Positions 25,760 to 38,396 of a stretch of 55,800 nucleotides of DNA are shown here, piece by piece. Origin of the DNA: an uncultured archaeon (GTDB taxonomy: Archaea; Aenigmatarchaeota; Aenigmatarchaeia; GW2011-AR5); NCBI GenBank assembly GCA_964371455.1, contig CAYJMB010000001.1, forward strand, positions 1 through 55,800, in the 5' to 3' direction. The notes beneath the pieces were generated by a model. The model ran no database searches. It saw nothing but the letters and a program-made list of their open reading frames with translations, and was not told the DNA's origin. The first letter of the stretch is position 1; every line of letters begins with the position of its first letter. The position numbers and the translations under genes were made by a program.

Positions 25760-26830
25760 ATGTCCAGGATTGTATGCGCACTTGGCAGAGTAGCATTTAC
25801 GTACAAGAAGAAAGAGCCGCCTAAAAAGATAGACAAGATACTCTTTCTCAAGATTGGAGCCCTTGGTGACGTGCTAATGACTACACCGCTCGTGAGGGCG
25901 ATCAGAAAGAAATTTATTCATGCCACAATTGATTACGCCTGCGGCAAGTCTTTTGCGAGTGCACTGCAATATAACAAAAACATCAATTACCTTATTCCAT
26001 TTGATGAACGAATATTTTTTAACAATGACTTTTCAGAACTAAGGAAGCTTGCTGTCAGGCTGAGGGGAAACAGGTATGATGTTATTTTTGTCCTGGATAA
26101 ACACTGGGCCGCAGGCTTGTTTGCGGCGCGGTGCGGCACTTTCAGGATAGGACTTGACAGATTTGGCGAAGGCTTTGCCAATAACCTCAATGTTTATTAC
26201 AGGCAGAACAAGCATGACATTGATGCATATCTTGACTTGGGCATATATTTCAGGGCAAAGCCTGCAGGCAGGGAAATGGACATAGCAATAACAAAACAAG
26301 ACAGGAAATTTGCACAGCGCGTCTGCAGCAAAAAATACATCGTCATTGCGCCTGGCGGGGCAAAAAATACAGGGCAGAGGGCGAAGATAAAGATCTGGCC
26401 CAAGGAAAATTACCTTCGTGTCGTAGACGCGTTATCTAAAAAATTTACTATCGTGCTTGTTGGCAACAAAAACGATAAAAAAATATCTTCCTGGATACGG
26501 AAACGCGCAAAGAACAAAAAGAAAATAAAGGACCTCTGCGGCAAAACAACAGTTGGGCAGACAGGGGCTGTCATGGCATTGTGCAAATTTGTAATCTGCA
26601 ACGATTCCGGGGCCATGCATATAGCATCGTGCGTGAACAACAATATTATATCTTTGTTTGGTCCGACAAATCCTCATGTGCTAGCACCTCTTAACAAGGG
26701 CAGTATATTCATCTGGAAGGAACAGAGGGCATGCTACGACATATACGGCAGATTCGGTACATGCAATAAGAACATAATGAAGAAAATCACTGTGGAGGAT
26801 GTGCTCAATGCGGCAAAAAGATACCAATAG
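25760..26830 (+). CDS. GT9-family glycosyltransferase (heptosyltransferase-like)
   Basis: The N-terminus has KILFLKIGALGDVLMTTPLVRAI. The C-terminus has DLCGKTTVGQTGAVMALCKFVICNDSGAMHIASC...LFGPTNP, the hallmark GT9 pattern. Confidence 0.7.
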   Translation: MSRIVCALGRVAFTYKKKEPPKKIDKILFLKIGALGDVLMTTPLVRAIRKKFIHATIDYACGKSFASALQYNKNINYLIPFDERIFFNNDFSELRKLAVRLRGNRYDVIFVLDKHWAAGLFAARCGTFRIGLDRFGEGFANNLNVYYRQNKHDIDAYLDLGIYFRAKPAGREMDIAITKQDRKFAQRVCSKKYIVIAPGGAKNTGQRAKIKIWPKENYLRVVDALSKKFTIVLVGNKNDKKISSWIRKRAKNKKKIKDLCGKTTVGQTGAVMALCKFVICNDSGAMHIASCVNNNIISLFGPTNPHVLAPLNKGSIFIWKEQRACYDIYGRFGTCNKNIMKKITVEDVLNAAKRYQ

Positions 26831-27917
26831 TCCGGGCAGCGCTATTAAAAAAGTGCTGATTATCAAAGGACCAGGAATAGGAGATGTTATAACATCTGTG
26901 CCGCTGGCCAGAAACTTCAAGCAGATACTAGGATGCGAGGTCCATATGCTGGAGGAATTCCCGCCTGAGAAGCAAGGAAAGGTTCTGATCAAAAACTGCC
27001 CTTACATAGACAAGATTGCAAGAATTGACTATAACATCTGGTACCTGAGGCCACATAGCGGGCATTTTTTGCGCGAGTTGTTTACACTAAGGTTCATTCC
27101 AGATGCATTCAGATTTATTCGCGATATCGCAAAACTAAGAAACGAAAAATACGATTTAGTGTTTGAGGGATTTCCCGGAACGCGGAATACGTACCTCCTG
27201 ACAAAATTCATCGGAGCAAAACTCAAGATATGCTGCGCAAGCCATCCTGCGAGGAAACTATACGACGAGTCTGTTGATATAACTGGCAAAAACATTGTCC
27301 AGCTAGAAAACAGCATTTTTGAACTGTTTGGCACCAAACTGACAGACGAAAAGCTTAAACTAGAAGTATTCTTTGACAAAGACCACATGAAGAAAACAGC
27401 AGATACAGTACTGAATGAACATGGGATAACAAAAAAATTGCCAATAGTCGGCATTAATACCGGACACAGTTATAAGAAGTGGCAGAATGTTAAATGGGCC
27501 AGGCTCATAGACAGCATTTCCGGGGCTGCTGTTGTGCTTGTCGGCGACAAAGAGCAGTCTGCAGACAGCAAGGAAATCCAGGCGCTCTGCAAGACAAAGT
27601 TTATAGACCTTACGGGGAAACTGAAACTGGAAGAGACTGCAGCAATTATGGAAAGAATGAGGATTTTCATATGCACAAATGGCGGGCTCACATGGATAGC
27701 TGCGGCCCTTGGTCTACCCACTGTAGTAGTGAGCGGGCCTACACCATACTGGTGGGACCCGCACACAAAAAACTGCAAAGTAGTAAGGAAAGCTGGGAAG
27801 ACATTTTATGAGCAGGAACAATATTCATGGCTTCAGCATGCACGCACAGATGACATTACAATAGAAGATGTAACGAAAGCGGCAAAAGAACTAGGGGAAC
27901 GCTATGGGAAAAATTGA
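26799..27917 (+). CDS. GT9-family glycosyltransferase (heptosyltransferase-like), second copy
   Basis: It has KVLIIKGPGIGDVITSVPLARNF and DLTGKLKLEETAAIMERMRIFICTNGGLTWIAAALGLPTVVVSGPT. Confidence 0.65.
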   Translation: MCSMRQKDTNSPGSAIKKVLIIKGPGIGDVITSVPLARNFKQILGCEVHMLEEFPPEKQGKVLIKNCPYIDKIARIDYNIWYLRPHSGHFLRELFTLRFIPDAFRFIRDIAKLRNEKYDLVFEGFPGTRNTYLLTKFIGAKLKICCASHPARKLYDESVDITGKNIVQLENSIFELFGTKLTDEKLKLEVFFDKDHMKKTADTVLNEHGITKKLPIVGINTGHSYKKWQNVKWARLIDSISGAAVVLVGDKEQSADSKEIQALCKTKFIDLTGKLKLEETAAIMERMRIFICTNGGLTWIAAALGLPTVVVSGPTPYWWDPHTKNCKVVRKAGKTFYEQEQYSWLQHARTDDITIEDVTKAAKELGERYGKN

Positions 27918-28980
27918 TATCATAGTATGCAGTCACAACAATGAGGACATTATTTCCAGGTGCCTGGACAGCGTAAAAAAACAAACATTCAAGGATTTTA
28001 ATTGCATTCTGGTTGATGACAATTCTTCTGACGGCACAGCGGATATCGTCAAAAGCAAATACAGATGGGTTAAAATTATAAAGAAAGACGGGCAGACAGG
28101 ACCTACGATAAGCAGGAACACGGCAATAGAACTCACTGAAGGAGAATTCATTGCTACACTCGACAGTGATGTACAGCTGGACAGGAACTGGCTCAGAGAA
28201 CAAGTGAAACTCCTGCAATCAGATGCAAGCATTGGCATAGCAGCTTCTAAAATTCTTTATTCATGGGACACACAAAGAATAAATTCCTGCGGAGGCGGCA
28301 TGACAAAAGAGGGTTTCGGCTTTGACATCCTTTGCGGAGAAGATGTTGGCAAACAAAAAGTTTATCTCCGGCCTGTTCTGTATGGCCACAGCGCAGCGAT
28401 GCTGGTCAGGAGAAAGATGCTGCAAGAAATCGGCATTTTTGACAGCACTTACTTTTACGGCAATGAAGATACGGACATCGGGTGGAGGGCGAACATTGCC
28501 TGCTGGAAGGTGATGTTCAATCCAATGGCAATTGCGTACCATGACGAGAATGCTACAATAAAAAATATGGCATGGAGTACCACGTTTCATGGCACCAAAA
28601 ACAGGATAAGGTCCTTAATTAAAAATTACTCCAGCACAAATGTGATCAAATATTTGCCGATTCACATGCTTATGGTTTTGGGCAAGACAGCAGTCAGCAA
28701 CAACAAATCAGCACGATTAAATGCTATTGCATGGAATACTGCGCATATCTTATCAACACTAAAGGAACGGCAGCATGTCCAGAAAACAAGGAAGATAGGC
28801 GACAAGGATATTATGACACATGTATTTTCCGAGAAACTACCCATGAAAAGAAAACAGCAAAATGACACTTCATTTTTTGCACCAAAAAAGAAGTTAGTGC
28901 TGATATCAACAAAGCTTTATATCACTATCCAAAACATAGTAAAAATCTTGTTTAACTATAACCAGGTGAAAGAATGGTGA
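27904..28980 (+). CDS. GT2-family glycosyltransferase
   Basis: It has IDIIVCSHNNEDIISRCLDSVKKQTFKDFNCILVDDNSSDGT and a DSD (DxD) motif. Confidence 0.75.
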   Translation: MGKIDIIVCSHNNEDIISRCLDSVKKQTFKDFNCILVDDNSSDGTADIVKSKYRWVKIIKKDGQTGPTISRNTAIELTEGEFIATLDSDVQLDRNWLREQVKLLQSDASIGIAASKILYSWDTQRINSCGGGMTKEGFGFDILCGEDVGKQKVYLRPVLYGHSAAMLVRRKMLQEIGIFDSTYFYGNEDTDIGWRANIACWKVMFNPMAIAYHDENATIKNMAWSTTFHGTKNRIRSLIKNYSSTNVIKYLPIHMLMVLGKTAVSNNKSARLNAIAWNTAHILSTLKERQHVQKTRKIGDKDIMTHVFSEKLPMKRKQQNDTSFFAPKKKLVLISTKLYITIQNIVKILFNYNQVKEW

Positions 28981-30398
28981 AGATACTCATATGCGACTTG
29001 CCATGGAAAGGCAAGAAGTATGCAGGCAGGACAGGCATGCGCTGGGCGCATACGTCAAACAAGGAGCCTGTTGTAAGCTTCAGACCGTTTCCGTTTTATC
29101 TTGCCACGACTGCGGCCGTGCTGGAAAACGGGGGACACGAAGTAATGATTCTGGATGCGCTCGCCGAGCGCCTGGTCGACGAAACATTTTTCAAGAGGGC
29201 TGTTAACTTTCAGCCAGATTTTATTCTCGCAGAAGTTCACACACCTTCTTACAACAACGACAGATTTTATTTTGCAGAGCTGAAGAAAGCGACAGGCGCC
29301 AAGAATATTTTTGCAGGGCCGCACACGACAGCCATGCCGGAGCAGGTGCTTAAGGAAAATCCAGGAGTGGCTGATTTTGTTGTGATTTCTGAGTACGATT
29401 TTCTGGCTTTGGACATTGTTGAGGGACGCACTGGTGAAGGCATTGTCAAGCAGCACGAGGTCACAGACATAAACAACATACCATGGCCTGCTAGACATTT
29501 GTTCAAGATGAACTTATATAATGAAGTTTTTTGCAGAGAATACCCAAATATACAATTAATGGGTTCGCGTGGCTGCCCATTTATGTGTACATACTGTAAT
29601 GTATTCACAATGAACAACTTTACCCGCAAACAAAGGACAAGACATCCGAAAGATATATGGGACGAAGCTGAATTTTTAATAGCTAAATATAAACCGAAAG
29701 AGCTCTACTTTGATGACGACATAATAAATGCCACACCAAAATGGTTTGATGCATTTCTCCAAGAGAAGATTGACAGGGGTATTGATATCCCATTCACATG
29801 CATGGGCCACGTAAATATCAGCGAGCAGCTGCTAGAAAAAATGAAACAGGCGAACTGCGTCGGATGGAAACTGGGTATAGAATCTACAGATGATAATGTG
29901 CTCCGGACTCTAAGGAAAGGGACAAATCATGCTATTCAGATGAGAACACTCAGCAAATGCAAGGAACTCGGAATAAAATGCCATCTCAATTTCTGTATAG
30001 GGCTGCCTGGCGATACAGAAGACAGTGTAAGGAAAACGTTGGAATTTGCAGAAACATGGGGAGATCACTATCAGGTAAGCATTGCTGCCCCATTGCCCGG
30101 AACAGAACTTTTTGAGGATGCGCTGAAGAACACGTGGATACAGGAAATAAACTGGGACGAATTTGACGGTATGGAGGACGCCATCATACAGTACCCGCAT
30201 CTGCCTATTGAAACGCTCAAGAAACTGGCTATGAGGGGCCAAAGCAATACGTACAAGAAAATCCTGCTCACGGGAGAGTGGAAGAAATACGTAAAGATGA
30301 TTTACAATGAAAGAGGCGTGGCAGGCGTTGCCAAGCTGGTTTTCATCCGCGGCCCCGGGATAACAAAAGAGATACTGTTTTCTCGCAGCAGTGATTAG
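28974..30398 (+). CDS. B12-binding-domain radical SAM enzyme (intein-free paralogue)
   Basis: It has an N-terminal Rossmann-like cobalamin-binding-type domain. This is followed by GSRGCPFMCTYC (CX3CX2C) and a radical SAM core (ELYFDDDIIN). Confidence 0.75.
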   Translation: MVKILICDLPWKGKKYAGRTGMRWAHTSNKEPVVSFRPFPFYLATTAAVLENGGHEVMILDALAERLVDETFFKRAVNFQPDFILAEVHTPSYNNDRFYFAELKKATGAKNIFAGPHTTAMPEQVLKENPGVADFVVISEYDFLALDIVEGRTGEGIVKQHEVTDINNIPWPARHLFKMNLYNEVFCREYPNIQLMGSRGCPFMCTYCNVFTMNNFTRKQRTRHPKDIWDEAEFLIAKYKPKELYFDDDIINATPKWFDAFLQEKIDRGIDIPFTCMGHVNISEQLLEKMKQANCVGWKLGIESTDDNVLRTLRKGTNHAIQMRTLSKCKELGIKCHLNFCIGLPGDTEDSVRKTLEFAETWGDHYQVSIAAPLPGTELFEDALKNTWIQEINWDEFDGMEDAIIQYPHLPIETLKKLAMRGQSNTYKKILLTGEWKKYVKMIYNERGVAGVAKLVFIRGPGITKEILFSRSSD

Positions 30399-30446
30399 TG
30401 ACAGGAAAGGCACAAGGCTAAATTTCTTTCTGCAAGAGATATCGGT

Positions 30447-31481
30447 ATGTACTATGACATTAGAATGAGATATGCGAAGGAGGAGAAGACAAGGATCAGA
30501 CAAATAGAGGAAGATATACAGCGAGCACTAAAGGAGATCATAAATATTATTAGAGACAAATTCAGCAACTATGTACTTTCTTTCGGGCTTACAGGACCTA
30601 TGGCGCACGGTGAAGGCACTATATTTTTTCAGCAGGATCAAATAACTGGCAGCGATATAGATCTTGCGATTGTGACAAAATACCGTTCGCTTAGAAAACA
30701 GAAAGCACTGGAAAGAGAAATCAAAATAGCATTTTCTTGTTCAGGCTTGGAGGCGGGACCGCTGTTTTTTGCACCGAGCATATTTGATAGGCCTGATCTG
30801 CTCTTTGTGGAATACGCGAAAGCAGGAAAAGTTCTCTTTGGTGAGAAAGTCAGATGCAATAAAGATATAGCTGTCTGGGAAGCTGCAAAGATACTTACAT
30901 CACGATGCGGCGCATTTTTTGATTCCGTTTCATTCAATAGCGGAATAAAGTTCTCTCAGAAATTTCCTTATGCATGGTCAAAATCTGTCATGGCTGCTGC
31001 AGAGGCTATGCTCGTGCTGGAAAACAGATATGCATTCTCCATTCAGGCACGCACGATGAAGATAAAGAATTCCAAATATGCGAAACTCATGCCTGGATTT
31101 CTAAATCTCTATCAAAAGGCATATACATGCAGGTATTCTGGAAGGATGCCGCAACAAAAAGGTCTTATTGAGAAAACAGCAAATTTTATCTCTTTCGCGT
31201 TTGAAGAGACAGCCAAGAAGCTGGCTGAGAAGAGCGGGAGAGATATTGCAAATCTCAGTGCGCCGTTTCCCAGCATAATTTCCACACGCTTTTTCTATTT
31301 CATAAATATGCTTAAGAATGAGCATCTAAGCATCCCGCTCTCCGAACCTTTGGTTAAAGAATTCGCAGAAATGGGAAAAATGTTTGGACAGCTCAGATCC
31401 AGTGAGATTCCAGAAGAAAAAACAAGGCAGCGCGTTGTACGATTATGGAAACATGCAGAGAGATTCTGGTTGCCTTATTAA
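30447..31481 (+). CDS. Pol-beta-superfamily nucleotidyltransferase-fold protein with helical C-terminal domain
   Basis: GLTGPMAHGEGT...GSDIDLAIV fits the hG[GS]-x(n)-D-x-D minimal NTase signature. The rest is alpha-helical and has no motif I recognise. Confidence 0.4.
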   Translation: MYYDIRMRYAKEEKTRIRQIEEDIQRALKEIINIIRDKFSNYVLSFGLTGPMAHGEGTIFFQQDQITGSDIDLAIVTKYRSLRKQKALEREIKIAFSCSGLEAGPLFFAPSIFDRPDLLFVEYAKAGKVLFGEKVRCNKDIAVWEAAKILTSRCGAFFDSVSFNSGIKFSQKFPYAWSKSVMAAAEAMLVLENRYAFSIQARTMKIKNSKYAKLMPGFLNLYQKAYTCRYSGRMPQQKGLIEKTANFISFAFEETAKKLAEKSGRDIANLSAPFPSIISTRFFYFINMLKNEHLSIPLSEPLVKEFAEMGKMFGQLRSSEIPEEKTRQRVVRLWKHAERFWLPY

Positions 31482-31502
31482 TTGTCACCATGTACACATA
31501 CC

Positions 31503-32654
31503 TTACGCCACTGTTGCCATTTTTATAAACTTGAATAATTCCACTACCTTGATCTCTTTCTTACGCACAGGCAAGTTAGTCACAAAAATTCCTTTAGAAT
31601 CCGGGAACATCGGATCAAAACCATGCCATCCCTTCAGGCCGCCTTTTATCGGCGCAAAGTAATCCGGGAAGATGCGCGTTTCAGGGTCTGCGAGAAATAT
31701 CAGATCGCCATAACGCTTTTTATTTTTGAAGTCTATTCTGTACTTTTTGAGCAATTTGCTGTCAAGAAATGTTATTCCTTTTACACTTGCCAGTTTTGAT
31801 ATGATGCGCTGTTTTATTTCTTCTGTTGATGGCCAGAACCTTGCCATTGTAGAGTCATAGAATGCAATGTAATCTCTGCCGTTTTTTAGCCCTGCTGCTG
31901 ATAAAATTTTTTGGATGTTAATAAAATTCTTCACTTCGCACATGCCATGGTCAGAAAACAGCAGGAAATTTACTTTGGTGCCCATCTGCTTTGCATTTTC
32001 AAGAAGTTCCTTTATTTTCTTATCGGCCTTCATGAGATAGTCCACTACCTGCCTTGAAAAGGGACCATGGATATGGCCGAGCTCATCAGAGCGATATAAG
32101 TAGAAGAAATCTACCTCGCTGTCTGTAAGAGACATGTCTTCTAGCCTGTTGTACTCGCCAAAATAGTCTGCGGAATCCGATTGCTTTGAGTAGGTGATGC
32201 CTTTTCTGTCCAGCATTTCAAATATTGTGCCTGTGGTCTCCAAAGGATTATTGGAGAAGTAAGGCGCCATTTCAATTGGAATTGCAGGAGGCAGGGGCAC
32301 AACTTTATTTTTGATGAATTTTGGTAGAAGTTTCCTGCAACTAGGAAGCAGGAAATACGGGGCTTTCATTGCAGCTAAAACATTTTTTCTGATGAAATGC
32401 GTCGGCAAAAATTTCAATGACCATGTCCATTTAAACGGTGAGTGCTCAGGATCATAATAAAATGTTGTGAACATACCATGCTCGTCCTGATACTTGCCGC
32501 TCCAGATGCTGGGGTGGATGCCTATGCTGTAGCCCAGCATAGAAACAACAGCAGCATAAGAATGCTTTTTGGCAAAGGCAGTTGTAAAAGGCATGCTTAC
32601 TTTCATCTGTTTTGGGTTCACGCCATCGATCAAAATCACTATTGTTTTTGCCAT
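31503..32654 (-). CDS. Alkaline-phosphatase-superfamily enzyme (type I phosphodiesterase/nucleotide pyrophosphatase-like)
   Basis: It has an N-terminal IVILIDGVNP metal/nucleophile region and an LLFSDHGM motif. Confidence 0.6.
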   Translation of the reverse strand: MAKTIVILIDGVNPKQMKVSMPFTTAFAKKHSYAAVVSMLGYSIGIHPSIWSGKYQDEHGMFTTFYYDPEHSPFKWTWSLKFLPTHFIRKNVLAAMKAPYFLLPSCRKLLPKFIKNKVVPLPPAIPIEMAPYFSNNPLETTGTIFEMLDRKGITYSKQSDSADYFGEYNRLEDMSLTDSEVDFFYLYRSDELGHIHGPFSRQVVDYLMKADKKIKELLENAKQMGTKVNFLLFSDHGMCEVKNFINIQKILSAAGLKNGRDYIAFYDSTMARFWPSTEEIKQRIISKLASVKGITFLDSKLLKKYRIDFKNKKRYGDLIFLADPETRIFPDYFAPIKGGLKGWHGFDPMFPDSKGIFVTNLPVRKKEIKVVELFKFIKMATVA

Positions 32655-32688
32655 GCTAATATGCTAAATGATAATTTTTAATAGCAAT

Positions 32689-33327
32689 TTAGCTGCGACG
32701 AGAAGTTTTCCTTACCACTGTCAGCAAGAACGGCATACCTGCGACACTGATCTTGCGCGTAACGTGTGCATAAGGGAGCTTTCTTAGATACCCTTCTATG
32801 CGCGTTCCCGTATAGCCTACCTTTTCAAATATGACAAGGCTGCCATTGCTCTGCAACATTGTATCTATATTTTTTGCTACCTGACCGACATACTTTTCCG
32901 GAATATAGGGCAGTATACCAATGCATAAGATGAGGTCATATTTCCCGCTGCAGTAACTGATGATATCTTGCTGGAGGAACCTGACTTTTCTGTTGTTATG
33001 TCTGGCTACTTTCAGCGCTGTTGCAGAAATATCAACTGCTGTTACAGTTGGCACGGTATCTGCAAGCTTCCCCGCTATAAAACCATAGCCACAACCTAAG
33101 TCCAGTGCAGACCTGTATCGCCTACGAGGGATGTATGTGACAACATCTTCTGCAATTCTTTTGTGGTATTTAAGGGAACCGAAGCCCTTTCTCTTTTTGT
33201 ATGTATGCTCAAATCTCTGTCTCCTCAGGAAGGAAAATCTGTTCAGGCCGTATCTATACAACCTGCTCGCAAACCTGTAGAGCCTACACATACAAACAAC
33301 TCTGTGCAGAAACAATAAGAACTTCAT
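32689..33327 (-). CDS. Class I SAM-dependent methyltransferase
   Basis: It has the motif I sequence ALDLGCGYGFIAG. Its start overlaps the stop of the upstream DUF4346 gene. Confidence 0.7.
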   Translation of the reverse strand: MKFLLFLHRVVCMCRLYRFASRLYRYGLNRFSFLRRQRFEHTYKKRKGFGSLKYHKRIAEDVVTYIPRRRYRSALDLGCGYGFIAGKLADTVPTVTAVDISATALKVARHNNRKVRFLQQDIISYCSGKYDLILCIGILPYIPEKYVGQVAKNIDTMLQSNGSLVIFEKVGYTGTRIEGYLRKLPYAHVTRKISVAGMPFLLTVVRKTSRRS

Positions 33328-33737
33328 TTAGGGACTTTCTTTTGCAGCCACAACACTTCAGGAAATTCTCCAGATACCGAACCGTCCTGTACGTATTTTA
33401 CGCCCAGCTTCATGCAGATCCAGGCGCGTGCCAGTTCCTTGCCAAGATAGGCTGCGTGATCCATGCGCGAGACGATGCCCTCATCAATTATCCGCTGATA
33501 AATATGATGAGGAAGTCTGCCTTTCACCAGTATTTTTATGCTGTTGACATCGTCGTATTCACAAATACCTACTTCTATTTCTTGCGTTTCTTCATTAATA
33601 CGAATTAGAAAATAGCCGACAGGATCTGCTATCCATTCGTACGTCTTGTCGTCCGCATTGATTACTTTTGCGTTGTTCCATTGAATTGCATTCCAAATAT
33701 ATTTCTTTACATCTTCTGCCATTTTAATCATCTTCAA
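33324..33737 (-). CDS. Stand-alone DUF4346-like protein
   Basis: DPVGYFLIRINEETQEIEV...HAAYLGKELARAW...KYVQDG matches my recollection of the DUF4346 signature (DPxGYF...HAAYLGRELxxAE...YxQD). This domain is normally found at the C-terminus of pterin-binding/MtrA-like proteins. Confidence 0.5.
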   Translation of the reverse strand: MKMIKMAEDVKKYIWNAIQWNNAKVINADDKTYEWIADPVGYFLIRINEETQEIEVGICEYDDVNSIKILVKGRLPHHIYQRIIDEGIVSRMDHAAYLGKELARAWICMKLGVKYVQDGSVSGEFPEVLWLQKKVPK

Positions 33738-33740
33738 AAC

Positions 33741-35915
33741 TCAATAGTATGTCATCCCTTCTTTTATGGCCTCGCGCCCCTTTTTACAGAACTCTAAAAT
33801 CTCTTCAGCAGTAAGATTATTATGTTTGATAAGAATCTGGTTTGCGCCACCTTTGCCGACCTGGTAGTAATTTTCCCAGTTGCTGTCTTGCGGCTTTATG
33901 ATTTCTATGCCAAAATTCTGCGGATTTTCCCAGAGCGGAGTTGCTGGAAAAGGCGTGAGTGGATAGAAATCGCAATATTCTATTTTTAAAGACTTTGCAA
34001 ATTCGATTGTCTGCTGTATGGTTTCCCTTGTTTCGCCGGGCAGGCCTATAATAAAGAAGCCTTTTACCTTAATGCCCAGGTCATGGCACCAGTTCACTGT
34101 TTGTCGTGTTCTTTCCAGACTGGCGCCTTTGCGGATATTCCTGAGAATCTGTTCATTGCCGGACTCAAAACCGAAGCTCAAGACGTCGCAACCTGCTGAT
34201 TTCATTGCTTTGAGCAGCTCATAATCTACGAGGTCCACGCGCGTAGTGGCGCGCCACTTGACCGGCGGTAGGCGTTCTTTTATTAATCTACAGATTTCAT
34301 AGACACGCTGCTTGTTGAATGTGAATATATCATCAACAAAATAAAATGCATGTATGTTGTACTTGTTCACCAAGAGCTCAAGCTCGTTTACGACATTTTC
34401 AGGACTTCTCGGCCGCCACTTCTTTATTTTGGCAGAGCCGCAGTTATGAACTAGCACATAATTAGCAAAAAAATTGTTGTGCGGTTTACAATTCAGGTTG
34501 TAAACGACCGTTTTTCCATAAAAATTTTTTATCTTTTTAACTTTCATGCCATTTGTAATGAAACTGCCTACCTTGTTTATAATGTGATCTGCTCCTTTTT
34601 GCAAGTCATGGCCCCAAACAACTAAAGTTTCATAGCCATTGTCCAAATAATATTTTAGTTTTTTCTCATCTTTTTCTGTCTGTCCGCTAAAGCCACAATC
34701 CTTGCATTTATGCCAATAACAACCAAAAAATTCTATTATCTTTTTCTTTTCTACGTGTACCCAGTCGGGAAAGAAAGTCCCTACAGGTCTTTCAAAAAAT
34801 GAAGTATATAAAAATTGATTCGGGAACTTTTCCTGAATAATTTCATTCAAGCGTAATTCTTCTTTATTCTCTATGCGCGCCCTTACTTTATGAAATCTCT
34901 CCCTCTGATTTTCTGGAGGATTCGCCATAGGATTATTTGTCAGTGCAATAACTCTCTGCCTTTCGCTAACCATCCGGCGACCTGCCTCTGTTTCTAGATA
35001 ATAAACAATTTCTTCACGTCCCCTCGTTTCCTCTTCTGTGGGAATATGAACTGGCATTTTTTTATTGAAAGAAATTTTATCTTTCGGGGTGATATGATGC
35101 AAGATATTGCCTGGTTTTATTTTGCCTGCTGCAACCCATTCTCCAGCGATGTAAAATGGATGTTCTGGAGTCGTTTTAATTAATGTGCCATCTTCCAGAG
35201 TTATTTCCAACATTTCATTGACACTTCTTTTAAATACTTCCTTCACTTCCGTTTCAACCAATAGGCCACCATCAAATGCAATCATTTTGTCTCCTATTTG
35301 GATATCTTTTATTTTTTTGTTGGGCGAGTTTGATGTGATAACCGTCGTGTTGCCATCCAGACAAAACACGCATCCATAAACACAGCCACGACTGGATGAG
35401 ATTGTAATCGCTTTCTCACCGCCAATAAGCATGGAGTACCTTTCAAGCTTGATGCCCTCGTAATCAGGGAGTGGCAATGTGTCCAGATTTTCTATCGGCG
35501 ACGACACTATTATTTTGATGTTCGGCCTTTCTTCTATAATTTTTTTAAGTCCGTTTTCCCCATCACCAACTACAACATAGTCAAATGCTTCAAGGGTTGG
35601 TTTTTCATTTGGGATGTCTGTGACGTGATTTCCGCCAGCAACAAGAAGACCCTGGAAGCCGGCAGCACGAATCTCTTTTGCCATGGTTATGCAGTTTTTA
35701 TAATTTGGCGTTGAAACAGAAATGCAGACAATATCAGGCTTTTCACATTTTATTGCTTCCATCAACTGTTCTTTGGTTTCGTGATTCATGTCAAATAGCT
35801 CTGTTTCATGGTCTATGCTTTTGAGATAAGAAGACAGGTAAGCAATTCCTAAAGGAGGGCGGTCTCCAGGATTCTCAAGAAACCAATCATGCGGGCTGAT
35901 AAGAAACGCTAACAT
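33741..35915 (-). CDS. B12-binding-domain radical SAM enzyme interrupted by an intein
   Basis: The N-extein is a B12-type domain ending ...SSRGCVYGCVF. The C-extein reads CGSAKIKKWRPRSPENVV...FYFVDDIF..., a standard radical SAM core. The 307 aa insertion carries intein blocks. Confidence 0.8.
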   Translation of the reverse strand: MLAFLISPHDWFLENPGDRPPLGIAYLSSYLKSIDHETELFDMNHETKEQLMEAIKCEKPDIVCISVSTPNYKNCITMAKEIRAAGFQGLLVAGGNHVTDIPNEKPTLEAFDYVVVGDGENGLKKIIEERPNIKIIVSSPIENLDTLPLPDYEGIKLERYSMLIGGEKAITISSSRGCVYGCVFCLDGNTTVITSNSPNKKIKDIQIGDKMIAFDGGLLVETEVKEVFKRSVNEMLEITLEDGTLIKTTPEHPFYIAGEWVAAGKIKPGNILHHITPKDKISFNKKMPVHIPTEEETRGREEIVYYLETEAGRRMVSERQRVIALTNNPMANPPENQRERFHKVRARIENKEELRLNEIIQEKFPNQFLYTSFFERPVGTFFPDWVHVEKKKIIEFFGCYWHKCKDCGFSGQTEKDEKKLKYYLDNGYETLVVWGHDLQKGADHIINKVGSFITNGMKVKKIKNFYGKTVVYNLNCKPHNNFFANYVLVHNCGSAKIKKWRPRSPENVVNELELLVNKYNIHAFYFVDDIFTFNKQRVYEICRLIKERLPPVKWRATTRVDLVDYELLKAMKSAGCDVLSFGFESGNEQILRNIRKGASLERTRQTVNWCHDLGIKVKGFFIIGLPGETRETIQQTIEFAKSLKIEYCDFYPLTPFPATPLWENPQNFGIEIIKPQDSNWENYYQVGKGGANQILIKHNNLTAEEILEFCKKGREAIKEGMTYY
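34443..35363 (-). mobile_element. Class-1 intein (307 aa) with Vsr-like PD-(D/E)xK nuclease domain
   Basis: Block A is CLDGNTTVIT, block B is TTPEHPFYI, and blocks F/G are VVYNLNCKPHNNFFANYVLVHN, followed by a +1 Cys. Boundaries were verified at the nucleotide level (tgt at 35363-35361; aac|tgc at 34445-34440). The internal PDWVHVEKKKIIEFFGCYWHKCKDC...LDNGYETLVVWGHDL resembles the Vsr core. Confidence 0.8.
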
Positions 35916-35936
35916 TATTCCAACACCTCTGATTCA

Positions 35937-36632
35937 TCACTTTCTTGCTTTTATTATAAATATCATGGCAAATCTGTCAGGCACTGTATTGGCGAGCCGT
36001 ATTTTCAAACCAAAAGGAAGAAGGTGCAAGCCATACGCTACTGTATGTATACAGAATTTTTTAATGCTTTTAAGCTTAATCATGTCTTTGATTGTTTCTT
36101 TTTCAAGGAAGCCTGGCGTATATTCAATTTCTTTTACTTTCAGGCCTGCATCTTTTAAAGCCTGCAGTGCATCGGTAAGATACCATCTTTTTTTATGATG
36201 GACACCGTCTGCCGGCAGGTTTGGAACACCGAGTACCAGCATGCCACCTGGCTTGAGGCATTTTCTTATCTGCCTGAGCATGCTCACAGGTTTTTCTATA
36301 TGCTCAATTGTCTCAAAACAGATAACAATATCAAATGAGTTTTCACGCACAGGATACCTGCCCTGCACATCTGACTGGATTGTTTTGAAGCCGCGTCGGC
36401 GTGCTTCTGTTAAACCAGATTTTGATATGTCCAACACAGTTGCTTTTTTCACACCCAGCCATTCAAGAAACTGCCCATTGCCACCGCCAACATCAAGAAC
36501 CTTAAGATCATCAGAAGGCTTGATAAAACCCTTGATGTGGCTATAGCGCAAGTCGTAGTAATCCATACCGCGCTGTATGTGTTCCTCTTCCCAATAATGT
36601 TCATAATATTTTTCGTAATCAAAGTGTTTCAT
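35937..36632 (-). CDS. Class I SAM-dependent methyltransferase
   Basis: It has the motif I sequence VLDVGGGNGQFL and DIVICFETIEHI. Confidence 0.75.
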   Translation of the reverse strand: MKHFDYEKYYEHYWEEEHIQRGMDYYDLRYSHIKGFIKPSDDLKVLDVGGGNGQFLEWLGVKKATVLDISKSGLTEARRRGFKTIQSDVQGRYPVRENSFDIVICFETIEHIEKPVSMLRQIRKCLKPGGMLVLGVPNLPADGVHHKKRWYLTDALQALKDAGLKVKEIEYTPGFLEKETIKDMIKLKSIKKFCIHTVAYGLHLLPFGLKIRLANTVPDRFAMIFIIKARK

Positions 36633-37356
36633 TCTTCAGCACCACAAAGGCTTCCCTGAGTGTCATGAACTCTACTTTTAGTTTCGCTAAATTTTCTATC
36701 AAATCTTTAAATTTCGCAAAATTTTTGTACTGATGATAGGCATGCAAACCGAGAACAAATATGCCATTTTTGGATGCCACGCTCTTGATGATGTAGTTTT
36801 TTATGACAGAATAATCGTCTTCGTTCACGTCCATCTGCCACTGTCTGGGCAGGCGCAGCCAAGGTATCTCGTAAAGTGCGCCAAAATGCATGAGCTTTTT
36901 TACTGGATAAAATGTGCCTATAGAAGAGTCCAAGACAAAACCCGCATTTTTTACATTTTCTATTGATTGTTTATCCTTTGATGTCCATGGAAAACGCCAT
37001 GACTTGACGTTACCATCGTACATGCTAAGTTCTTTGTAGCACTGCAATGCACTCTGATAATTTTTCTCCCTTTCTTCTCTGGAGTGAGAGATGCTATGAC
37101 CCCCTATTTCATGCGCCATTCCCACCAGCTGCTTAATAATTTCTGGCTCTGTCTGGTTGATGGTAAGAAAGAAGGTTGCCGGAATATTCTTGGATTTCAG
37201 ATATTCTGCCAATTCAATGCTTTTGCTGTCCACGTAGTCATCAAATGTCAACACAACGATTTTTCTTTTGGTCTGTCTGGAGAATTTGTAGGCCGGGTAT
37301 CCTGACAGCCTCTTGAAAAAGAAATATGCCCTGATGAACACAGGACTCACCACCAT
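36619..37356 (-). CDS. Polysaccharide deacetylase (NodB/CE4-like)
   Basis: It has VVLTFDDYVDS (TFDD motif) and GGHSISH (His motif). Confidence 0.7.
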   Translation of the reverse strand: MVVSPVFIRAYFFFKRLSGYPAYKFSRQTKRKIVVLTFDDYVDSKSIELAEYLKSKNIPATFFLTINQTEPEIIKQLVGMAHEIGGHSISHSREEREKNYQSALQCYKELSMYDGNVKSWRFPWTSKDKQSIENVKNAGFVLDSSIGTFYPVKKLMHFGALYEIPWLRLPRQWQMDVNEDDYSVIKNYIIKSVASKNGIFVLGLHAYHQYKNFAKFKDLIENLAKLKVEFMTLREAFVVLKNETL

Positions 37357-38396
37357 GCAACCTGCGCGGCGCGATAAAGCTTACTACAACCCCGGCACAG
37401 AGCAACTTTGTCACCCATTTTCTGCTGGTGCAAATCTCTTATTTTAGAATAGAGTTCCCCGTTCCATACTTCGGATAAACTCCGTTTGCTGGCGTCGCCT
37501 AAAATAACCTTTCCGTCAAAATCCACACAACATAATGCGACTTTCCCGCTGCTCAGCACAATCATTTCATTCCACAAGCGCCTGCAGGGATAGACGATTT
37601 TTGATCTCTCCACCTCAAGCTCACCCTCGTGCCCTTCCCCCTCCCTGTTGTCAACAATACCGAAATCATATCCATCTACTATGCCATCCCAGAGATTCTT
37701 GAACAAATCAAGCTCATGATAGTTCTCCTTCTGAATCGTACAGTTGACTTCGATCATTGGCTCTACCATACCGTGCCTATTTCTCTCCTCCACCAAATTC
37801 CTTATGTTAGATACGACTACATCAAATTTCCCATTGACACGGATTTTCTCATAAGTTTCCTTTGTTCCGCCGTCGAAACTGAATATAATTTTATTGGGAG
37901 GGTTTGCAAGAAGCTTGTTAATCTTTTCACTGTTCAGGACAGTGCCATTTGAGTAAAACATGACATACATATCCTGGCCCCTCACGAAGCTTATGCGCTC
38001 AAAGATCAGGTGATCGAGAAACGGCTCGCTGTAAAAAGAGAGTATTATTGTGTTTACACCCATTTTCTTCGCGTCAAGCACGATCTTCTTGAATAGTTCC
38101 ATAGGCATGACGGTCTTCTGCCGTGTCATGTCCTTGTACGGACACATAATGCATTTCAGATTGCAGAGGTTGAATGTTTCTATGGAGATCGCCTGCGGGA
38201 TCTGGACATCCTTTAGAACAGCATTTATCCTTCTTGTGTATATCTTGTCGTATGCAATGTAAAACGGGTACCTGTTGATCAGTGCAAACATAAGTTTTTT
38301 CAGGCTGTAATGGTTGTTCGCAAACTGCTTGAAGGAATGATAGAGTTTTTGCATAATAATCACCAATTTCTCGCTAAATGGGCAACATATAATCAC
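37347..38396 (-). CDS. Radical SAM enzyme with SPASM/twitch-type C-terminal Cys-rich domain
   Basis: It has CNLKCIMCPY (CX3CX2C). The C-terminus has CCVDFDGKVILGDASKRSLSEVWNG...CRGC. The real start is possibly M15 (38354). Confidence 0.75.
   Translation of the reverse strand: MIICCPFSEKLVIIMQKLYHSFKQFANNHYSLKKLMFALINRYPFYIAYDKIYTRRINAVLKDVQIPQAISIETFNLCNLKCIMCPYKDMTRQKTVMPMELFKKIVLDAKKMGVNTIILSFYSEPFLDHLIFERISFVRGQDMYVMFYSNGTVLNSEKINKLLANPPNKIIFSFDGGTKETYEKIRVNGKFDVVVSNIRNLVEERNRHGMVEPMIEVNCTIQKENYHELDLFKNLWDGIVDGYDFGIVDNREGEGHEGELEVERSKIVYPCRRLWNEMIVLSSGKVALCCVDFDGKVILGDASKRSLSEVWNGELYSKIRDLHQQKMGDKVALCRGCSKLYRAAQVAWW

Follow-up and report, generated by a model that had tools for sequence, protein, structure and literature searches.

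Inteins in active-site motifs are well established, and so are inteins in radical S-adenosylmethionine (SAM) proteins of the MoaA and Rv2578c types and the homing endonucleases of the EDxHD family, of which I-Bth0305I is a member (PMC2677866, PMC3239194, PDB 3R3P). The EDxHD nucleases described so far are encoded by separate open reading frames (ORFs), which lie within group I introns or between split intein halves, or stand free, and a Glu at the position of Phe62 of the repair endonuclease Vsr separates this homing lineage from the repair enzymes (Dassa 2009, PMC2677866; Taylor 2011, PMC3239194). A 2025 preprint (10.1101/2025.01.02.630785) describes antisense Vsr-like copies inside actinophage inteins and states that there are no other intein-associated reports beyond the separate ORFs of split inteins. 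Here we analyze a 55,800-nucleotide stretch of DNA from an uncultured archaeon of the Aenigmatarchaeota (GenBank assembly GCA_964371455.1, contig CAYJMB010000001.1, positions 1 to 55,800; hereafter the window), in which a gene for a B12-binding radical SAM enzyme is interrupted, inside the CX3CX2C motif that binds its [4Fe-4S] cluster, by a segment of 307 codons. This segment is very probably a homing class-1 intein carrying an in-frame nuclease of the EDxHD type. In the searchable literature, which omits most subscription journals, we found no description of a contiguous archaeal intein with an EDxHD nuclease translated in frame; anyone who looks at which domains occur together in metagenomic proteins can see the architecture, and a prior description is possible.

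The nuclease of the window resembles I-Bth0305I and its EDxHD relatives in its catalytic fold, in its signature residues, among them Glu in place of Phe62, in its link with a self-splicing element and in having an additional N-terminal region before the catalytic core. It differs from them by being in frame within a contiguous archaeal intein and by keeping the cysteines of a GCYWHKCKDC motif, whereas I-Bth0305I has no zinc motif (PMC3239194); a DNA-binding module of the NUMOD type, looked for N-terminal to the nuclease, was not detectable in the window copy. With E. coli Vsr (1VSR/1CW0, PF03852, TIGR00632) it shares the fold, the pattern PD(F/W)V ... GC(F/Y)WH.C ... G(W/Y)..L.(V/I)W and a zinc-like arrangement of cysteines; unlike Vsr, which has Phe62 and nicks DNA at T:G mismatches, the window domain has Glu at this position, is embedded in an intein and would, by analogy with homing enzymes, be expected to cleave both strands. 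The archaeal inteins with LAGLIDADG or HNH nucleases (PI-PfuI, 1DQ3; the Tli and Pho VMA inteins) also present a HINT scaffold, a nuclease between blocks B and F and a preference for conserved active-site motifs. Their nuclease family is different, yet HNH nucleases are carried by inteins that are neighboring or allelic to ours in the same motif (protein P0056 and locus L013, see below).

Two systems are close by their hosts. The intein of P. abyssi MoaA (Callahan et al. 2011, as cited in the reviews PMC3922620 and PMC10663303) is also archaeal, also resides in a radical SAM protein and presents a Cys-3/Cys1 CxxC with the same spacing as C182-V-F-C185 of the window precursor, but MoaA is not a B12-binding class B enzyme. 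The intein-containing radical SAM proteins of the Rv2578c family (NF038136) are collinear with the window precursor through N-extein, intein and +1 residue (residues 171-494 against profile positions 62-337, E-value 5.9e-14) and the window intein alone aligns from profile position 76, which points to an insertion in the same motif or adjacent to it. The score of 51.8 bits against a cut-off of 700 nevertheless indicates a different radical SAM family with a different and shorter intein.

The insertion in the cluster-binding motif

The interrupted gene (Table 1) is a single ORF whose translation matches exactly the sequence quoted in an earlier note, made by a model from the DNA letters, which had proposed an intein with a Vsr-like nuclease inside the iron-sulfur motif. 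Pfam recognizes in the precursor a B12-binding domain (3.5e-18) and a Radical_SAM core (6.4e-27), which flank matches to Intein_splicing (1.9e-14), PT-HINT (2.4e-9) and Hint (1.9e-7); the NCBIfam model intein_Nterm (TIGR01445) also matches above its cut-off (1.3e-9). The identical 724-aa protein is found on three other, independently assembled contigs, which rules out a chimeric assembly or another assembly artefact. According to the earlier note, deletion of residues 185-491 would restore a contiguous CVYGCVFC and a normal radical SAM core. Performed in silico, this deletion yields a 417-aa protein with precisely that motif, for which the Radical_SAM match covers the full profile (positions 1-166, 1.5e-31), as against positions 21-166 only in the precursor. 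The note had also proposed a comparison of the spliced protein with B12-binding radical SAM families: a B12-binding domain (PF02310, 7.8e-19), together with Radical_SAM (PF04055, 1.5e-31) and the CX3CX2C motif, makes it a class B enzyme, and no functionally defined equivalog of NCBIfam (HpnJ, BchE, PhpK and others) reaches its cut-off, the best being HpnJ with 183.6 bits against 577.6.

The strongest evidence comes from orthologues without the segment, which the earlier note had suggested to look for (in the following, P numbers designate proteins and L numbers loci). Two were found: P0006 (417 aa), from a Candidatus Aenigmarchaeota metagenome-assembled genome (MAG), with 90% identity over 100% of the length, and P0007 (419 aa), with 86% identity to the spliced window enzyme. 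Both align without a gap across the junction CVYGCVF/CGSAKI (...GCVYGCVF-CGSAKIKKW...), the slash marking the insertion point here and below. This alignment places the intein after the X2 residues of the motif and before its third Cys. The residue that follows it, C492, aligns with the third CX3CX2C Cys of the intein-free homologues and of the paralogue encoded in the same cluster, so that a single residue is both the third cluster ligand and the +1 nucleophile, as the note had claimed. This paralogue is indeed intein-free and shares 26% identity with the window enzyme. The gene of P0006 sits in a syntenic locus (L001, GCA_016202875.1) whose flanking genes correspond to those of the window: radical SAM/SPASM, polysaccharide deacetylase, methyltransferase, B12-binding radical SAM, PterinBD-DUF4346, methyltransferase, Phosphodiest and the paralogous B12-binding radical SAM. 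The spliced window gene and the L001 allele are 84% identical at the DNA level, with 27/30 and 24/30 identical nucleotides in the 30 positions on each side of the junction; the intein-less site of L001 reads AGCCGTGGTTGTGTTTATGGGTGCGTGTTT/TGCGGCTCGGCTAAAATTAAAAAATGGCGC.

The splicing domain

The domain matches and the splice residues bear out the limits that the earlier note gave to the intein, with its blocks A, B and F/G and the +1 Cys. Taken alone, the segment matches Intein_splicing at 7.4e-15, above the Pfam cut-off, and intein_Nterm at 1.4e-9. To define its conserved residues we used an alignment of the window intein with 12 related inteins of other proteins (13 in total) and a second, tighter alignment. 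The nucleophile of position 1, which is Cys185 of the precursor and opens block A (CLDGNT), is invariant in these alignments. In block B the TxxH motif is T65-P-E-H68 (intein numbering), T65 being nearly invariant in the 13-intein alignment and invariant in the tighter one and H68 invariant in both; C1, T65, H68 and P69 make up the invariant set of the N-terminal half of HINT. The intein ends with VLVH306-N307, followed by the +1 residue C492, and all 14 related inteins that were extracted end likewise with HN followed by C, S or T.

An AlphaFold2 (AF2) model built on the 13-intein alignment has a mean pLDDT (the predicted value of the local distance difference test) of 80.3, with both HINT halves above 90 and residues 104-149 of the linker below 50. 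In Foldseek, the top PDB matches of this model are exclusively inteins and bacterial intein-like (BIL) domains, with template modelling (TM) scores to the target up to 0.8. A single-sequence search of the PDB with the intein also retrieved inteins and BIL domains, the best being the bacterial intein-like domain 2LWY (3.8e-7); its matches were confined to HINT, with none to a nuclease, and a family profile was needed for the latter. The GC content of the intein is 36%, against 42-44% in the exteins.

From these residues, the precursor of 724 aa would splice by the class-1 pathway: an N-S acyl shift at Cys185, a trans-thioesterification to Cys492, the cyclisation of Asn491 and a final S-N shift. 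The 307-aa intein would be freed and CVYGCVF ligated to CGSAK, giving the contiguous three-cysteine motif of a 417-aa enzyme. Normal binding of the [4Fe-4S] cluster and SAM should need prior splicing, because 307 residues part the second from the third ligand and the third ligand is itself used in splicing. It is therefore plausible that the cluster is bound only by the spliced enzyme. Since the HINT fold brings the two termini together, an aberrant binding of metal by the four neighboring cysteines of the precursor is also possible.

The nuclease domain

Between blocks B and F the earlier note had seen no LAGLIDADG or HNH motif but a likeness to Vsr. The first point holds in Pfam (at E<=1), NCBIfam and PHROGs, where neither family was found with the precursor or the intein. 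The second was reached through homologues, as the single-sequence matches to curated families stay below threshold (their scores are given below, where the reading is weighed). PF03852 (Vsr) does not match the window sequence at all but matches 7 of 31 homologues, with a best value of 5.6e-5, and DUF559 is matched by 16 of these 31 at E<=0.01 (best 6.9e-10); the relation of the window nuclease to DUF559 is, judged by such scores, one of superfamily level. A PHROG annotated as 'endonuclease' matches the window sequence at 9e-5. The homologues share the core motif PDF(I/V)N.NGKKKIIE(L/F)(F/Y)G(C/D)YWH ... GY.TL.IWEHEL. A family profile made of the 31 homologues and searched against the PDB retrieved the catalytic domain of I-Bth0305I (3R3P, 2.7e-9), the Vsr enzyme of E. 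coli (1CW0/1VSR, 6e-9 to 1e-8) and, further away, the DUF559 protein 3HRL (1.7e-4). The structural comparison gives the same ranking: among PDB entries, the AF2 model of the nuclease domain (pLDDT 87.8) is matched best in Foldseek by 3R3P (TM 0.81 to the target, probability 1.0), followed by 1VSR/1CW0 (probability 0.99) and then 3HRL.

The alignment of the profile with Vsr (1CW0) pairs D200 with Asp51, H218 with His69, D232 with Asp97 and E211 with Phe62. P199, D200, E211, G214 and H218 are invariant, D200, E211 and H218 being so across the 31 homologues, among which the D232 column is conserved without being invariant. We infer that D200, E211, H218 and D232 are the catalytic residues. Three cysteines, Cys215, Cys220 and Cys223 (GC215YWHKC220KDC223), lie at or near the positions of the zinc ligands of Vsr, and this cysteine pattern occurs in 13 of 16 intein-borne homologues, against 52 of 150 overall. 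By profile and by model the nuclease is thus clearly of Vsr fold and EDxHD type and belongs to the I-Bth0305I homing lineage. It is not an orthologue of the repair enzyme, since it falls far short of the curated cut-offs; it also differs from that enzyme by the Glu at the Phe62 position. The proposal of the earlier note is thereby refined: its Vsr-like nuclease is, as far as sequence comparison goes, a member of the I-Bth0305I/EDxHD homing lineage rather than of the Vsr repair lineage, and not a one-off but part of a sizeable uncultured lineage.

NUMOD modules have no Pfam match in the linker of the window intein or in P0276, its closest relative; clear NUMOD3 motifs (9e-10) appear only in the linker of the more distant P0135, a protein of 1135 aa with two inteins of the Vsr-nuclease type.

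By analogy with I-Bth0305I, the nuclease would cut intein-free alleles near ...GGGTGCGTGTTT/TGCGGCTCGGCT... and recombinational repair would copy the intein into the break. It is presumably by this route that a selfish intein homed into the DNA encoding the [4Fe-4S]/SAM motif of a class B radical SAM gene, in a DPANN host of the Aenigmarchaeota type.

Related inteins and their hosts

A word-indexed protein search with the 307-aa intein gave 4 weak matches and missed P0005, the window protein's own database entry, and an exhaustive search was needed. With HMMER and intein residues 93-287 as a query, 4,082 homologues were found at E<=1e-3. Among the best 150 of them, 134 stand alone, their median length being about 250 aa, and 15-16 lie in frame between HINT halves. 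Ten of these 15-16 intein-borne copies have radical SAM hosts, of at least six subfamilies, with the intein in the CX3CX2C motif at two adjacent sites. In seven proteins it precedes the second Cys (Cxxx/CxxC: P0132, P0134, P0136, P0139, P0158, P0162, P0227); in the window protein, in its sister allele (P0125/P0276) and in P0131 it precedes the third. P0129 and P0131 are orthologous by their exteins and have the intein at the two different sites. A third insertion point, right after the second Cys and with a +1 Ser, is seen in P0056 (702 aa, 39% identity to the window enzyme), whose intein carries an HNH_3 nuclease (6.2e-11).

Other hosts of these inteins are ThyX (P0173, also on the viral contig L012), a GDP-mannose dehydratase (P0201) and P0153. 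The 2724-aa protein P0126 is a DnaE-like polymerase with four inteins of the Vsr-nuclease type. In P0002 (468 aa, on a Logan contig of 2.6 kb) a homologous intein precedes a cluster-ligand Cys, that of GCGSAIAS in an IscU/NifU scaffold protein, and its nuclease has decayed, with loss of the GCYWH core motif. The +1 context of this intein, CGSA, is that of the window, and ectopic homing between similar targets may have taken place.

A viral contig of 215 kb (IMG/VR UViG_3300029288_003766) encodes a B12-binding radical SAM protein of 775 aa (L013:2395-4722, plus strand) with an intein at exactly the site of the window. Its junctions are CPYNCSY/CLDGDT...MLVHN/C. The HINT halves share 45% and 54% identity with those of the window, whereas the nuclease is of the HNH-like kind (PF01844, 6.5e-4, slightly below the cut-off). 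At one and the same homing site, related scaffolds are therefore combined with different nuclease modules, which suggests an exchange of these modules and possibly a viral vector. In another virus, the Streptococcus phage vB_SagM-GXN1 (PQ819873.1, about 122.6-125.2 kb; L026:1253-3859, plus strand), an unannotated ORF of 868 aa presents in succession the C-terminal end of an intein (...SHN/C), a terminase-like region and a second HINT N-half with an EDxHD-like nuclease (IIEIDGVRWH), and has no HINT C-half for this second N-half.

Scanning genome contigs with a profile of the tighter intein alignment gave 7 matches, all to the nuclease only and without intein context. These copies (L005-L011), free-standing or otherwise embedded, come from MAGs of Thermoplasmata, an Asgard archaeon (Borrarchaeum), Methanosarcinales, Patescibacteria, Caldisericales and Acidobacteriaceae, and because they span these groups the nuclease family is taxonomically very widespread.

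One may go further and propose that the window intein represents a large and as yet undescribed lineage, whose contiguous inteins carry a zinc-type EDxHD/Vsr nuclease in frame, which circulates among large viruses, DPANN archaea and further uncultured prokaryotes, is specialised on CX3CX2C in B12-binding radical SAM genes at two or more adjacent sites (a third being occupied by an HNH-bearing intein), exchanges Vsr-like and HNH modules on its HINT scaffold and splices under the control of the redox or Fe-S state of its four clustered cysteines. Taken jointly, with all these parts holding at once, such a proposal is improbable.

Inheritance and decay

In each of the two closest pairs of exteins, one member has the intein and the other lacks it (P0005/P0006, 90.2% identity; P0125/P0007, 89.0%; about 86% across the pairs), and the distribution of the intein is therefore patchy. 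The sister allele exists in two forms belonging to the same 90%-identity cluster: in P0276 the intein of 382 aa is intact, and in P0125 an in-frame deletion of 37 aa removes the catalytic core of the nuclease after GCYW. Read from these sequences, P0125 is a decay stage of the homing cycle. Comparing the window gene with that of P0276 (L023), the proportions of nonsynonymous and synonymous differences (pN and pS) are 0.144 and 0.83 in the nuclease and 0.083 and 0.835 in the exteins. The pN/pS ratio of the nuclease, about 0.17, is close to that of the HINT halves, and its low pN indicates purifying selection on the nuclease. This comparison shows saturation at synonymous sites (pS of 0.70 in the intein and 0.84 in the exteins), which indicates a long residence of the intein. 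The patchy orthologues, the damaged sister nuclease and the viral HNH allele all fit a homing cycle of invasion, fixation, decay and loss that is still ongoing.

Alternative explanations

Several results weigh against a homing intein with an active EDxHD nuclease. The window nuclease on its own falls short of the family thresholds, both for DUF559 (PF04480, E-values of 0.003-0.06 and 13.7-17.8 bits against a cut-off of 20.6) and for Vsr (TIGR00632, 0.011 and 16 bits against 97.85). The splicing and the DNA cleavage of the window intein are both deduced from its sequence. The synonymous saturation comes with no sign of recent transfer, and the patchy distribution could reflect precise losses and not gains. 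Finally, the linker is about 75 aa shorter than in P0276 and has lost two of its three 'NNPM' repeats; shortened, poorly modelled and with no recognizable NUMOD, it may no longer allow the nuclease to home efficiently.

The last two points also fit a relic, that is, an element whose splicing is intact but whose nuclease is immobile and which persists because an imprecise deletion would destroy an essential motif. A long vertical residence, the loss of the repeats, a linker in which no NUMOD is detected and the deletion of the catalytic core in the sister allele P0125, showing that decay does occur in this lineage, are what one would expect of it. On the other hand, D200, E211, H218, D232 and the cysteine triad are intact and invariant in the alignment of the close set, and the nuclease is nearly as constrained as the HINT halves by its pN/pS ratio. 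We regard the relic as possible but rather unlikely.

Less probable still, and in our opinion quite doubtful, is a co-option of the intein as a conditional switch, through which redox state, a metal or the Fe-S supply would gate splicing and so the activity of an oxygen-labile radical SAM enzyme. The candidate gates are a disulfide between Cys182 (-3) and Cys185 (1) or between Cys185 and Cys492, or a metal bound to the four clustered cysteines. The proposal draws on the junction, where the extein Cys-3 and the intein Cys1 form a CxxC (C182-V-F-C185) with Cys-7 and Cys+1 close by, on the purifying selection that maintains the intein, and on two precedents as presented in the above reviews (PMC3922620, PMC10663303): the native Cys-3/Cys1 disulfide that controls the intein of P. 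abyssi MoaA, itself a radical SAM protein, and the Cys1-Cys+1 disulfide that blocks the Pab PolII intein. But a CxxC arises automatically when an intein starting with Cys1 precedes the third Cys of the motif, placement in the motif is an expected by-product of the choice of target by homing endonucleases, related inteins occupy two other motif positions with a different geometry, and close orthologues do without the intein, which is thus dispensable. The earlier note had raised a possible post-translational switch on glycan tailoring; the switch is an inference by analogy with the redox trap of MoaA, and the glycan role comes entirely from the neighboring genes (GT2/GT9, deacetylase, methyltransferase).

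As for a non-excised accessory domain, of BIL/Hint-like type or a nuclease insertion, kept in the mature enzyme, it has in its favor that Hint-superfamily domains without full splicing exist and that the best PDB sequence match is 2LWY, but we reject it as having next to no chance of being right, the segment being precisely absent from 90%-identical orthologues at that exact point, splitting an obligatory 8-residue cluster-binding motif, presenting the full intein signature down to the C-terminal His-Asn followed by Cys, and having dozens of homologues in unrelated hosts that all begin with Cys1 and end with HN before a C, S or T. A homing intein with an in-frame EDxHD nuclease in the cluster motif of a B12-binding radical SAM enzyme is, as a whole, very probably the right explanation.

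Gene surroundings

The intein-bearing gene belongs to a conserved cluster (26799..38396, both strands), found in synteny in MAGs of the Aenigmarchaeota type (L001, L023). Its neighbors encode GT2 and GT9 proteins, methyltransferases, a deacetylase, PterinBD-DUF4346 and Phosphodiest. The conserved content of the cluster comprises GT9, GT2, the paralogous B12-binding radical SAM protein, a 344-aa protein without Pfam match, Phosphodiest, two or three SAM methyltransferases, PterinBD-DUF4346, a polysaccharide deacetylase and a radical SAM-SPASM protein. Elsewhere in the window, neither a second intein nor a free-standing Vsr-like gene was found, and the window as a whole yielded no tRNA.

Table 1. 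Coordinates of the intein-bearing gene, its parts and related features (positions refer to the window unless a locus is named; aa, amino acids)
Feature	Position	Strand	Remarks and basis
Precursor gene, B12-binding radical SAM with intein	33741..35915	-	724 aa + stop; ORF, translation, Pfam
N-extein, aa 1-184	35364..35915	-	Holds the B12-binding domain and the first two cluster cysteines
B12-binding domain, aa 16-125	35541..35870	-	Inside the N-extein
C178 and C182 in CVYGCVF, first two cluster cysteines	35364..35384	-	
Putative intein, 307 aa (protein aa 185-491), Cys1 ... His306-Asn307	34443..35363	-	Domains, absence in orthologues, AF2 model, GC
HINT N-terminal half, intein aa 1-92	35088..35363	-	Block A CLDGNT, block B TTPEHPFY (T65, H68); pLDDT >90
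Linker, presumed DNA-binding region, intein aa 93-149	34917..35087	-	Low-confidence structure; one 'NNPM' repeat kept
Vsr-like EDxHD nuclease domain (predicted), intein aa 150-270	34554..34916	-	Family profile, AF2/Foldseek, invariant residues
HINT C-terminal half, intein aa 271-307	34443..34553	-	Blocks F/G, VVYNLNC...NNFFANYVLVHN; pLDDT >90
+1 Cys, C492	34440..34442	-	Predicted splice nucleophile and third Cys of CX3CX2C; alignment column invariant
C-extein, aa 492-724 + stop	33741..34442	-	Rest of the radical SAM core; Radical_SAM at 496-640
Paralogous B12-binding radical SAM, intein-free, 474 aa	28974..30398	+	GCPFMCTYC; same cluster; paralogue also in syntenic L001
Sister allele forms P0125/P0276	L023-L025, e.g. 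L023:4001-6406		

Significance

The basic understanding of inteins is unchanged by this locus, which is a family-level extension and brings no new principle. To the contiguous inteins it adds a fourth type of in-frame nuclease, the EDxHD/Vsr-like one. The nuclease is compact (about 120 aa), possibly stabilized by zinc and fused to a self-excising scaffold, and could serve as a scaffold for engineering. In the precursor, all three [4Fe-4S] ligands and Cys1 lie no more than 8 residues from the junction, which makes it a test case for redox- or metal-controlled splicing beyond the single characterized example of MoaA; if gating by redox state or Fe-S supply were true, it would constitute a native conditional-splicing system for an oxygen-labile class of enzymes. 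For the family of inteins itself, the cluster motif of radical SAM enzymes appears as a recurrent homing target, with sites one to three codons apart, and provides a clean natural setting in which to follow the exchange of endonucleases and the colonisation of new targets.

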